NCBI GenBank assembly: GCA_964016885.1
Contig: OZ024742.1
Span: forward strand, 31,434,001-31,498,000
Reading direction: 5' to 3'
Length of the DNA: 64,000 nt
DNA from: Eledone cirrhosa
Lineage: Eukaryota
How positions within the stretch are numbered: the first letter of the stretch is position 1; each line of letters starts with the position of its first letter. The notes below the pieces were generated by a model that saw only the letters and a list, made by a program, of their open reading frames with translations, was not told the DNA's origin and ran no database searches. This document shows positions 2,478 to 63,624 of the stretch, in pieces. The position numbers and the translations under genes were made by a program.

Positions 2478-3190
2478 TATAAATGAGAGGTATAGAGATT
2501 GTTTTAGCGATAAGCTAATAGTATTCTATAACATATATGCGACTATAACGTCAAGATGGGAAAAGTAGTTAACGTAAGATTTAGGAATAATAATTCAAAC
2601 TCATCTCAAAAGAGAATCAGGATATAAATTCATCCACAGAATTTAGTGAAATCCATGGAAAAATCAATAGACCTTTAACTCATGATAAAATAAAGTTTAA
2701 ACACTTATCCTTCAATTTGGAATAACATCAAATGCTCTGTATAGTCTTAAAAGACTATTTCATGAAAACTTTCAGTGGAGATGGTCACGGTTGGATTTCA
2801 ATCGTCAGCAGAGCTCTCACAGTATTATAATCCGAAAAAGGGAATTCTAAAACTGGCTAGTTCGCCATCATGTGTAATTATGAAAAAGCACATGAGGAAA
2901 AACAGGGCTAGTGACGTCAGGATGAAAGTGAATGTTTATTTACAAGAAATAGCAGTCAAATACATTCTGAAAAAAACTCTACAAAGGGAGTTCAGCAAAT
3001 AGCAATAATTATCACAGTTTTTATAAAAAAAACCGGGATTAGTCACAGATAGTTTAAGCACTCTAGGAAAAGAATCCGAGTATAAGTATAAATGAGAGGT
3101 ATAGAGATTGTTTTAGCGAGAAGCTAATAGTATTCTATAACATATATGCGACTATAACGTCAAGATGGGAAAAGTAGTTAACGTAAGATA
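2478..3190 (-). mobile_element. Non-coding HHR element, family Y: about 609-bp monomer plus about 100-bp terminal direct repeat
   Basis: 2481-2580 is repeated at 3090-3190; homologous copies at about 12975-13400 and 17330-17785. Confidence 0.7.
2734..2814 (-). ncRNA. Type I hammerhead ribozyme with full stem III
   Basis: Minus strand reads gctctg CTGACGA ttgaaa...tttcat GAAA tagtc-ttttaa-gacta TA cagagc; stem I 6 bp, stem III at least 5 bp. Confidence 0.8.
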
Positions 3191-4837
3191 TAGATTGATA
3201 GATAGATAGATTGAAACTATAATGCAACAAATTAATTAAAACACTCATATATATATATATATGACTTTTAATTAATTTGTTGCATTATAGTTTACCAACC
3301 TGAACCACCGGTTCTACCTATTGGTAAATAGCCTAACATAAATGGTATATATATATATGTATATATATAATGGTATATATATATGTATATATATATATGT
3401 GTGTGTGTTTAATTTTGACAGCCATGAAACTTATGTTTGTCATTTCAAACTAAGAAACAGTACTTTGTTTATTTCAATACATATTTCCAATAACAATAAT
3501 ATCACAAAACAACCTTATTTCGTTTACTGACGAATACATGATGAACAGATACCGGTACAAGGACAAAACAGAGCCGAAAATCTGCGTCTCCCTCACCATC
3601 CTCCGGGGAAACACTTTCTCTATTCTGTCCGCCGGGGCCAGCCAGCGTGCGGACCCCCATTTGCTCATAATAGTGAGGAGAGGAGAGCCGGAGACAGCGA
3701 CAGTGGGAGTTTGTTCTTTTGTGTTCAGACGTGGTGTATATGTATATGTTTCACACACGCACACACTCACAATAACCATCTAACCCACCAACAAACCACA
3801 ATTAAATACATAACAAAGGTTAATAACAACAGCACAGATATATTCTAGCAAATATTAGTGAAACTTATTCATTCATTAGATATCTAGAACGATAAAATTT
3901 ACTTTTAGAATTAGTTAATTCAACCCCATGACTTACCGTTAAATATGTCCTATAACGACAACCAAAAGTAACAGCAACGTGCGGGAATAATTAAATAAAC
4001 TTTGTCATAGGCTTCAATCAAACGATTCGAATTATTAATGATAACGAGATTAAAAACAGATCCGAGTGAAAAAATTCCTTTACATTTTTTCTTGTTTTTT
4101 TTTTATGGAATATAAAGTTTGGTTAACAAAATATATTTAATGAGATCAATAGCAACAGGAGCAGCAGACTTTACACATTGAAGTCGTGTGGAGGCGTTAA
4201 TTTTACCTTTTCAAACCCCACCAGTAAGAAAACCTGACCTCATTTGTGTATGTATATATATATATATATATCAACAGAGAAAAAGAAAACAATTTGTCAT
4301 TGATATACGAGTTTGGCATATGTTAAACTGTTTATATATATATATATATATATATATATATATATATATATATATTTTATACATTATATATATATATATT
4401 ATATATATATTTTATACATAAAATTTTGCTCTGTTACTTACATAGAGCACTCTTCACTTCTATGACCTTTTCTGTTTCCAACGGAAATTTCAATACTTAT
4501 ATATATATATATATATATATATATATATATATATATATATATATATATATATATATATATATATCAGAATGGAGGCAGTAAAAACGAGTTAAACCATTAC
4601 TCACCAGAGTACTCGACACTTGAGGTAGTAGAGTGTGCAATATGAAAAGGTTCGGATCTAACTGTTGAAACGGCTACACACACATATATATATATTATAT
4701 TTAGAGTTATAAACTCAAACAGTCCTTTACAATTAATTAGCTCAAAGAAAGAAACATTTCTGATATATATATATATATATATATATATATATATATATAT
4801 ATATATATATGTGTGTGTGTGTGTAGATTGGCTAGTT

Positions 4838-5473
4838 CGGCGATATCCAATTTTAGGGGACTAAATGCTGCTTACGTGCTGTAGTTGCTGCTTACTTGTA
4901 TGAGGCTATTCCAACAAATTTACATTCCCTTTTTTTTAGCCGTTAAAAGAAATATAGATTTATTTATTGTTTTTTTTTGCGATTTATTTGCCACTGGGAA
5001 AAGAAACCCCTTGGAAAAGAAATGACCCAGATGCGTTTGCAACGAGGAAACTGTGGGGATATGTAGCCGGCCAACAAATGGTCCTCTTCTTCCGATACCA
5101 CTTCGAAAGAAGGATCAAGGTGGAGTGAAAGTAGCAATAATGGCCCGTGTAAGTGGGCCATCTCTCTATATCGGCTTGTACAGGTAAGAGAAGAAGGGAG
5201 CACCCCCCTCTCTCTCTGTGCTCCCTGGCAGAAAGGTCGCACACTTTCTACGGGGGTGTGTGTGACCCCAAAAGGCTGCCTAACGTGGCAAATAAAGAAA
5301 TCTATGCCCAGTGGCAAATAAATCGCAAAAAAAAACCAATAAATAAATCTATATTTCTTTTAACGGCTAAAAAAAAGGGAATGTAAATTTGTTGGAATAC
5401 ATTGAAGTAAGCAGCAACTACAGCACGTAAGCAGCATCAGCAGCATTTAGTCCACTAAAATTGGATATCGCCG
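4838..5473. mobile_element. Fold-back element with about 160-bp inverted arms enclosing an internally deleted Tx1 3' fragment
   Basis: 4838-4998 is the reverse complement of 5307-5473; 5000-5305 aligns in pieces to 15790-16490. Confidence 0.7.
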
Positions 5474-6049
5474 TTAGTTCTATCTATAATTATTGTTTGT
5501 TTACTCGAATAATGCAAAATACGCCCAGATTTCTGAATTTGTACGAACGTGATTTCGTTTTATTGATTTCTTTACTTCGATAAATTATATTGGGAGATAT
5601 TGTAGATTATTTCAGTCTAATTTGTATTATGTTGCTTGGTTTGCTAATTAAATAACAATGTCTTTCGAGGCTGACATGTTAAATGTAAACAACAGTTGCC
5701 TTCGTCAAATTTTTAATTTGTTCATTGTTGATAACAAAAGTTATCTCCCCTGACAGAACATTATTACCGGTAATTGTTTAACCCAAGGCCATCATTAATC
5801 TAGCAGACCTATGATTAAATACGTTCCTGTTGTAACCATCCTGTCTTCTTTTTGTTTTTCTTTTCTTTATTTTAAAGACATAGTATACTCGTATCTATAA
5901 TGTGATCAGCCACTTATACGTTAATATCACAAGGAGGGAGCTGTTCCGTTGATCGAACAGCTCGAACACTCATCGTCGAAAGCGAAGACGGCTCATCGAT
6001 TTCGAATGATTTTAAATGATAAACATAATAAATACAATGATAAACATAA

Positions 6050-62799: not shown

Positions 62800-63352
62800 T
62801 ACTCTTTTACTCTTTTACCTGTTCCAGCCATCCGACTGAGGCCATGCTAGGGCACCGCCCTTGTTGCTACACATTTTATCTCCAGCCTGTATTGGTTGGC
62901 CACTGGTGTAAGAGGGAGTTTGTTGCTGCTGCCTTTAGGTTTCCCTCGTGTCTTGCTGTGGGCTCATCCGGGAACCTGGATAGCAAGGTGTCGAGATGTT
63001 TCTTGAAAACATGCGTCCACACCATGCAGATCTCTCAGATCTTTCGGCAGCTTGTTGAAGAGTTGAGGGCCCTTGAACCCCAGGCTATTGCAATATGTGC
63101 CCCTTATTCTAGATGTGGAAGACGGGACCCTTGGCACCACACAGTGACGTCCTGTTCGGGGGTTGGTCCAGCTCCCAATGCGAAAGTTTGCTGCTAGTCC
63201 CTCCAGGATTTTCCACATGTAGATCACTGCGTATCTCTCCCGTCTTCGTTCCAAGGAGTAGAGGTTCAGTTCTTTTAGCCCCTCCCAGTAGCTTGTCTCC
63301 TTCATCGTTGCAATCCTCTTGATGTAGCTTCGCTCGATTGCCTCAAGCTCCG
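62800..63352 (-). mobile_element. CR1-group LINE 3' end
   Basis: SYWEGLKELNLYSLERRRERY...WKIL...GPQLFNKLPKDLR; short tandem tail tactctttt. Confidence 0.8.
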
Positions 63353-63577
63353 TATATATATATGTATATAGTATTAGTTATACTATTTATGGTTATGTAA
63401 ATACAAAACCTTATGCAATTATAAGTATTTTTTTATACACACCCTAAATAGTGGTAGGCAGTAATGTATTACTACCTTATTACCAGTAAGTTAAGTAGCT
63501 CAATGTAAAAACATCAGATGATTTACAGAGCAGTTATATGAAATATAAGAATCAAAGAACTGTTCAAAACATTATTG

Positions 63578-63624
63578 TGCTTACAGCTGTTTCCTCCAAA
63601 CCGAGGTTTGGATTCTTCGGAGCA
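63578..63624 (-). ncRNA. Minimal type I HHR with a U4C core change
   Basis: tgct CCGAAGA a-tccaaacc-tc-ggtttgga-g GAAA cagctg TA agca. Confidence 0.65.

Follow-up and report, generated by a model that had tools for sequence, protein, structure and literature searches.

Predicted hammerhead ribozymes beside (TA)n tracts in Eledone cirrhosa: ends of Penelope-like elements together with tandem units that lack open reading frames

Here, a 64-kb stretch of the 3.0-Gb genome of Eledone cirrhosa (contig OZ024742.1, positions 31,434,001 to 31,498,000; the window) was analyzed for type I hammerhead motifs and for the mobile elements carrying them. The window is AT-rich and dense in (TA)n, (CA)n and (GA)n tracts, and about a dozen families of hammerhead-bearing insertions (A to L) were distinguished in it (Table 1). 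An initial annotation had listed 24 motifs as belonging to many unrelated, non-autonomous self-cleaving elements whose stems differ. Families A and E (7 of the 24, about a third) bear out the non-autonomous character and are, as read from their sequence, head-to-tail arrays without open reading frame (ORF) in the layout of non-LTR (long terminal repeat) retrozymes, whereas families B, C, D, I and J (11 of the 24) are 3′ ends of 5′-truncated autonomous Penelope-like elements (PLEs). "Unrelated" was too strong, since B, C and D have stems I and III in common and are all carried by Hydra-type elements. We consider it quite probable that these five truncated PLE families and two ORF-less tandem families, piled up beside (TA)n, would all have been inserted by Penelope reverse transcriptase (RT) and GIY-YIG endonuclease (EN), the (TA)n tracts being the likely insertion targets. 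Loci elsewhere in the genome are given L numbers.

Table 1. Hammerhead-bearing insertions and other features of the window (positions within the 64,000 nucleotides).
Feature	Position	Strand
Family A insertion, longer than one unit; hammerhead 2734-2814, 8-bp stem III	2477-3189	-
Family A insertion; hammerhead 13229-13308	12966-13409	-
Family A insertion, damaged core near 17469	17324-17794	+
Family E inverted pair; hammerheads 21280-21322(-) and 21909-21951(+, U16.1 changed)	21065-22097	
Family E inverted pair; hammerheads 45525-45567(-, stem II mismatch) and 46272-46314(+, intact)	45258-46530	
Family B, 3′ end of Hydra-type element, short 5′ inversion; hammerhead 16689-16751	16601-16889	+
Family C, 3′ end of Hydra-type element; hammerhead 28324-28388	28191-28463	-
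Family C copy; hammerhead 51574-51639	51381-51679	+
Family C inverted pair; hammerheads 60550-60615(-) and 60733-60798(+)	60500-60925	
Family D inverted pair, 3′ end of Hydra-type element; hammerheads 9024-9094(-) and 9218-9288(+)	8994-9318	
Family I, truncated, inverted Neptune-type element	56943-59887	
Family I GIY-YIG coding pieces	58093-58720(+), 59231-59887(-)	
Family I hammerheads	57160(-), 57681(-), 59031(+)	
Family J, 3′ end of very young Hydra-type element; C4-variant hammerhead 63578-63624	63361-64000	-
Family F; U3-A8 variant hammerhead 27238-27273	27064-27341	+
Family G; hammerhead 29865-29942, long stem II	29810-29950	-
Family H; minimal hammerhead 49902-49937, one core change	49846-50041	-
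Family H; minimal hammerhead 53420-53455, one core change	53364-53559	-
Family K; damaged hammerhead from 39905, long stem II; 3′ part recurs at 39447-39574	39800-40058	+
Family L; intact hammerhead 17148-17230	16991-17280	+
Possible decayed hammerhead, weak stem I	7748-7802	-
LINE (long interspersed element) with RT and zf-RVT domains, one in-frame stop, (ATCT)n end	13647-16220	+
Further LINE fragments	5069-5272, 10507-10889	
Zinc-knuckle piece, ORF1-like	583-2257	-
Transposase fragment, Mariner-like (HTH_32)	6967-7706	-
29-bp and 15/29-bp minisatellites	33033-34003, 24290-24888	
Assembly gap, 200 N	40512-40711	

The presence of type I hammerheads, as claimed by the initial annotation, held up in the shuffle scan it had proposed: a strict descriptor detected 12 matches in the window and none in any of 30 dinucleotide shuffles built from the repeat-masked window, and with one core change permitted the numbers were 14 and a shuffle mean of 0.17 (maximum 2). 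Both descriptors found nothing in the reversed and the complemented window, and when a stem II bulge was permitted, 16 canonical motifs in the window stood against zero in these two controls. The window motifs are thus genuine type I hammerheads for which self-cleavage is predicted. Chance motifs in AT-rich DNA were ruled out by the zero control matches, and an assembly artefact by the thousands of dispersed, diverged copies, which are found in public runs too. All 24 listed sites were checked: 15 are intact, i.e., those at 2734, 9024 (listed as 9020), 9218 (9216), 13229, 16689 (16693), 21280, 28324, 29865, 46272, 51574, 57160, 57681, 59031, 60550 and 60733; two carry family-wide core variants, namely 27238 (U3-A8) and 63578 (C4); six belong to real families but are damaged (17469, 21909, 39905, 45525, 49902 and 53420); and the one at 7748 gave no convincing parse and has no second copy in the approximately 0.95 Mb examined. 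The intact hammerhead of family L, absent from the earlier list, is the 16th canonical motif. Another motif absent from it, at 22116-22151(+), combines U3-A8 with GCAA instead of GAAA; this variant, also noted in L176, is common to several copies, so that either its core is natural though unusual, or the ribozyme is dead and the family has spread nonetheless.

Contrarily, the Rfam hammerhead models, also put forward as a check, did not recover the motifs. There was no hammerhead match at gathering thresholds, the best being 46272 against Hammerhead_HH9 with 19.7 bits (E 0.0075) as compared to a gathering score of 52, and the 13229 motif had no hammerhead match at all. In the e-value scan of the whole window, no ribozyme was among the best 150 of 417 rows, nearly all of which were miRNA, snoRNA and sRNA models matching microsatellites. 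Support for the motifs therefore rests on the descriptor, the controls and covariation. The latter was seen in the E clan, in line with the earlier statement that the stems still pair: nine hammerheads align gap-free, 98% of cells pair as compared to 25-46% in slid controls, and both sides have changed in 8 of 12 stem pairs, a score reached by 0 of 500 shuffles, which is not a probability, since the aligned rows are related and hand-picked.

The proposed density of one motif per 3 kb is right locally, with one motif per 4 kb under the strict descriptor and one per 2.7 kb when damaged copies are included, although inverted hammerhead pairs are single insertions. It is, however, a local peak. 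Across 39 evenly spaced 10-kb background stretches (389 kb), 33 motifs were found, 19 of them within one array; the other 38 stretches hold 14, i.e., 0.37 per 10 kb as compared to 2.5 per 10 kb in the window, an approximately seven-fold difference. Motif count rises weakly with TA-tract number (Spearman 0.37, p 0.02). Scaled up roughly from 14 motifs in 379 kb, the number of dispersed hammerheads in the genome may be of the order of 100,000. Exact family words occur genome-wide 13,299 times for F, 10,046 for E, 8,184 for C, 3,303 for H, 2,426 for B and 1,211 for A, with zero matches in the reversed control for all six. More than 100 distinct strict motifs were noted in the approximately 0.95 Mb examined.

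Longer genome copies of B, C, D, I and J run into an RT/GIY-YIG ORF via a 3′ untranslated region (UTR) of up to about 1.6 kb. The earlier observation that coding sequence adjoins only the motifs at 57-59 kb is thus correct inside the window but misleading genome-wide, where B, C, D and J also reach ORFs. For family B, RT and EN are followed by a 1.6-kb UTR and then the hammerhead (L206); for family C, EN lies about 1.4 kb upstream of the C end in two of three stretches (L200, L201), which were obtained as matches to an EN found inverted beside one C copy, and L200 continues from EN and C end into the N-terminal piece of the next copy. A GIY-YIG piece is located upstream of family D in 7 of 30 loci, with a 589-aa RT and EN ORF in L193, and family I has an RT and EN ORF in L194. 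Family J shows a 649-aa RT and EN ORF and a 1.4-kb UTR between hammerheads 4.2 kb apart (L203, G000:C3:44654400-44659200), and the inverted partner of the J copy in the window lies about 1.2 kb beyond the window end. L203 is a near-complete young family J element bounded by terminal repeats, with its N-terminal coding part split by frame breaks; eight genome copies of J are 100% identical to the window across 281 nt. A filter requiring that no microsatellite lie between was relied on only for the A and E rows: it is unfair to I, which has its own (CA)n in the UTR (0 of 28), and it recovers too few loci for D (4 of 29, as compared to the 7 with EN upstream) as well as for C (0 of 30).

By their motifs, B, C, D and J are Hydra-type and I is Neptune-type, the clade assignment being made by motif alone with the definitions of Craig et al. 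(2021, PMC8557442); this and the other literature comparisons refer to the accessible parts of each source. Like the Hydra-clade PLEs, which include Hydra-1_Obim of Octopus bimaculoides, the four families show a C-terminal GIY-YIG, RW[KR], DKT, a CxCX5C linker and CxxC/CxH, these motifs being spread over B, C, D and J with no single copy showing every one. Moreover, they share with that clade a hammerhead close to the 3′ terminus, (TA)n as target, 5′ copies in inverted orientation and a one-sided tail. They differ in having thousands of copies and long 3′ UTRs, and by eye their hammerheads differ from that of Hydra-1_Obim in the supplement, which gives one Hydra family for O. bimaculoides; J additionally has the family-wide C4 core and, in L203, a linker one cysteine short, the second being missing. 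Family I resembles Neptune-clade PLEs in its RT, CX4CxxC linker, C-terminal GIY-YIG, minimal hammerhead in the terminal repeat and (TA)n flanks. Pfam recognized no families in the D and J proteins, and RVT_1 and GIY-YIG remained below cut-off for I. The named relatives of the J protein, from a bivalve and an argonaut, are only 33-38% identical to it; PF26215 is present in relatives of J, one of which also has PF01541.

Family A consists of a 633-bp unit, and L195 holds 16 cut-site motifs at 633-634-bp spacing across all 10 kb, with no ORF or PLE match within these 10 kb. The unit of family E is 420-430 bp, with relatives of 466-469 and 310 bp. Head-to-tail units with a hammerhead in consecutive units were found in L195, L057, L036 and L185, and in the window sequence 2478-2584 of the first A copy recurs at 3087-3193. 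When the first 100 exact matches of each family were inspected by eye, A showed 23 and E 13 same-strand neighbours at one-unit distance, whereas B, C, F and H had no same-strand neighbour within 1 kb. Coding sequence contiguous with the element was found in none of 29 A loci and none of 29 E loci, a small sample. Folded as circles and compared with 20 shuffles, E-clan units reached z values of -6 to -11, their low folding energy coming partly from AT-rich palindromes, and A reached -2.6. Several side observations concern the same families. Further hammerhead tandem units at L185/L199 (G000:C22 near 12.0 Mb), L193, L197 and L205 comprise a 468-bp array of more than 20 units, 466-469-bp and 310-bp relatives of E, and a family of inverted partial tandems whose stem III is CCATGG. 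In L208 (G000:C1:22595300-22600050), a 5′-truncated E copy and a broken LINE-like RT of like orientation are fused with no TA tract between them, which may reflect a deletion at the target or a template switch. This locus, fetched for two same-strand E copies at a distance of 4.6 kb, had no PLE ORF among the matches listed.

The A and E insertions share Penelope hallmarks, namely the TA target, 5′ truncation, an inverted 5′ copy and a length of more than one unit. With unit positions counted from the predicted cut, the 3′ end lies at 262-270 in 30 of 33 A blocks and at 215-222 or 270-282 in 38 of 44 E blocks of at least 100 nt, 11 of 55 E blocks having been dropped as shorter than 100 nt and matching the AT-rich segment only. 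These 3′ ends sit at TTA(T) stretches and nearly all run into (TA)n, whereas the 5′ ends are scattered and many blocks exceed one unit. The arms of one inverted insertion often end at different sites, as in the E pair at 45258-46530, whose outer ends are at unit positions 273 and 217. Since the queries by which the A and E loci were picked extend 70-85 nt beyond the cut, these counts disfavour copies that end there; among the five A and E insertions of the window, which are free of this query bias, six of seven ends fall at the hot spots and one E end is at 158. In the autonomous families, 5′ truncation, inverted or partial-tandem ends and a one-sided tail are likewise present, and their distance from the cut to the end also takes one or two fixed values; in C, for example, it is 40-59 nt for 16 of 30, and in D it is 30-49 or 130-149 nt for 48 of 49. 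A one-sided tail has been described for PLEs (Craig et al., 2021). As the A and E ends lie 215-280 nt past the predicted cut and not at it, the template must contain the uncut junction, as a circle or multimer would, a template route that has already been proposed for PLEs. In their accessible parts, the two retrozyme studies (Cervera and de la Pena, 2020, PMC7229834; Li et al., 2026, preprint 10.64898/2026.07.22.740005) give no unit positions for the 3′ ends of insertions.

Following this, we propose that transcription through tandem copies would give multimeric RNA, which the hammerhead would cut into units, acting as a dimer if its stem III is a short palindrome and possibly as a monomer in A, and that a host ligase would circularise the cut units. 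The Penelope endonuclease would then nick (TA)n, the nicked DNA end would prime at a UUA(U) stretch within the unit, and the RT would read across the uncut hammerhead junction, often beyond one unit, and stop at random; priming from a second nick would yield the inverted copy with another 3′ end. The cleavage, ligation, nicking and priming steps are inferred. That the A and E junctions specifically record retrozyme movement, with a Penelope nick in (TA)n, priming at one or two fixed UUA sites of a circular RNA and the RT rolling through the junction, appears to us about evenly balanced between true and false.

Several points weigh against this explanation. No similarity was seen between the A or E units and the autonomous elements of families C, D, I and J, so that the mobiliser of A and E is read from insertion anatomy only. 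The 29 loci each of A and E were sampled out of thousands, leaving room for a rare autonomous parent, and their choice was biased as described; the hand-picked, related rows of the E-clan alignment belong here as well. Furthermore, the link of family B to an ORF rests on a single long locus, the C end is absent from one of the three family C stretches, and the E copy in L208 adjoins a LINE-like RT fragment without a TA tract. Finally, eight of nine predicted Xenopus retrozyme dimers remained uncleaved in vitro (Li et al., 2026).

Alternatively, all families including A and E might be pseudo-LTR remnants of autonomous PLEs, with the arrays produced by unequal crossing-over of DNA and no RNA circle involved. 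That every family is a PLE truncation was one of the outcomes that the initial annotation had named as fatal to its own proposal, and it proved so for five families once longer copies were obtained, though not for all. Local tandem amplification from PLE ends has also been proposed (Li et al., 2026), and long homogeneous arrays do exist (L185, L195). However, in all 29 A and all 29 E loci the 5′ extension is further unit sequence, and the PLE matches upstream of one A and three E loci are outside the element blocks and beyond microsatellites. Dispersed new insertions of more than one unit with fixed 3′ ends, together with whole-unit relatives of 310-469 bp that retain the hammerhead geometry, likewise speak against remnants, which we therefore judge unlikely. 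Less probable still, indeed very improbable, is that A and E are non-autonomous but were moved by a microsatellite-targeting LINE and not by Penelope enzymes. The window does contain a LINE RT, the E copy in L208 abuts such a fragment in the same orientation, and LINEs are left open as mobilisers by Cervera and de la Pena (2020); nevertheless, A and E share the (TA)n target, the inverted 5′ copy and the one-sided tail with the proven PLE families here, the same anatomy matches the PLE description of Craig et al. (2021), and no poly(A) tail was seen at the A and E 3′ junctions inspected. That every family is a non-autonomous retrozyme is scarcely credible: despite the fact that A and E are ORF-less tandems and that coding sequence in the window adjoins only family I, it is refuted for B, C, D, I and J by the long copies reaching RT/GIY-YIG ORFs, and B, C, F and H lack same-strand unit-length neighbours among 100 listed matches each.

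The window families can be compared with known systems. A and E resemble metazoan non-LTR retrozymes (Cervera and de la Pena, 2020; Li et al., 2026) in being ORF-less, of 33-38% GC and arranged head-to-tail with one type I hammerhead per unit, from dimers to arrays of at least 16, with predicted self-paired circles and co-occurring PLEs; in E, moreover, stems I and II have their canonical lengths of 6 and 4 bp. The 633-bp A unit exceeds the 150-450 bp of the former study but lies inside the 51-972 bp of the latter, and its stem III is 8 bp. The minimal PLE hammerheads (Cervera and de la Pena, 2014, PMC4209133) are alike in their many families per genome, mostly as single truncated copies, their opposite-strand pairs 100-700 bp apart, the palindromic loop 3 and U3-A8, the host being different and the rest the same. 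The U3-A8 core covariation is known from Schistosoma PLE hammerheads (Cervera and de la Pena, 2014), and U4C is weaker in vitro, yet viable in a viroid (PMC3088659). For comparison, 16 families with more than 6,000 motifs were reported in coral and 126,247 motifs in axolotl (Cervera and de la Pena, 2020). Published work on other animals already describes numerous hammerhead families with truncated PLE ends and retrozymes side by side, and the crowding of both element kinds in invertebrate genomes has likewise been reported. In the accessible parts of Cervera and de la Pena (2020) neither octopus nor cephalopod is mentioned, a 2026 octopus repeat annotation with 31 recently active Penelope-like families has neither ribozyme nor hammerhead in its main text as far as accessible (PMC13282606), and among the papers listed on hammerheads, Penelope and retrotransposon circular RNA in octopus and cephalopods, none beyond Craig et al. 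(2021) was seen to describe such families. Judged from the literature alone, the window families look like undescribed new members of two known kinds of element. What is added are these new-looking families, two natural core variants at high copy number (U3-A8 and C4), and A and E junctions tied to Penelope-type integration. The mobilising enzyme of retrozymes was left open in both retrozyme studies, in the parts accessible; the thousands of near-identical A and E copies beside young Hydra- and Neptune-type elements offer a direct test of it and, if confirmed, a testable donor-passenger pair for this mechanistic question as well as better repeat annotation.

Six of the 24 listed motifs (F, G, two of H, K and 7748) were linked to neither element class. 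In the copies examined, F, G, H, K and L showed no RT-EN ORF of their own, and the upstream sequence held in common was mostly shorter than 250 nt; a same-strand F pair 3.1 kb apart (L205) and an H inverted pair (L207) had no PLE ORF among the matches listed. Since F and H lack unit-length tandems, they are likelier truncated element ends than retrozymes, and an end of this kind is the most likely identity for all five families. In family F, TTGAAAA is present in 14 of 16 distinct variants of 17 matches. Tips of further hammerhead families, as 3′ halves or inverted, are located at 8705-8880, 39106-39255 and 12812-12924; they are broken off inside or below the motif, one has a CCACTGG-type stem III, and family L is among them.

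Besides the hammerhead families, the window contains other repeats. The TA-flanked repeat Y is very abundant (7903-8595, 20033-20743, 25734-26124 and 27527-27622), with 38 matches in the approximately 0.95 Mb examined, and occurs both as a partial tandem of 525 bp and in inverted copies. CTGATGA lies some 20 nt before the 3′ end of the repeat, preceded by GAAA at a distance of about 25 nt; no hammerhead parse was obtained, a type II or III reading by eye failed, and Rfam gave no useful match. This half-core recalls the 'HHR_half_core' of cephalopod Naiads in the accessible supplement of Craig et al. (2021). A short repeat resembling a SINE (short interspersed element) is present in at least 10 copies, at 11719-12436, 22384-23128, 34407-34600, 36860-37455, 47018-47203 and 61075-61178. 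This repeat is a putative octopus SINE.

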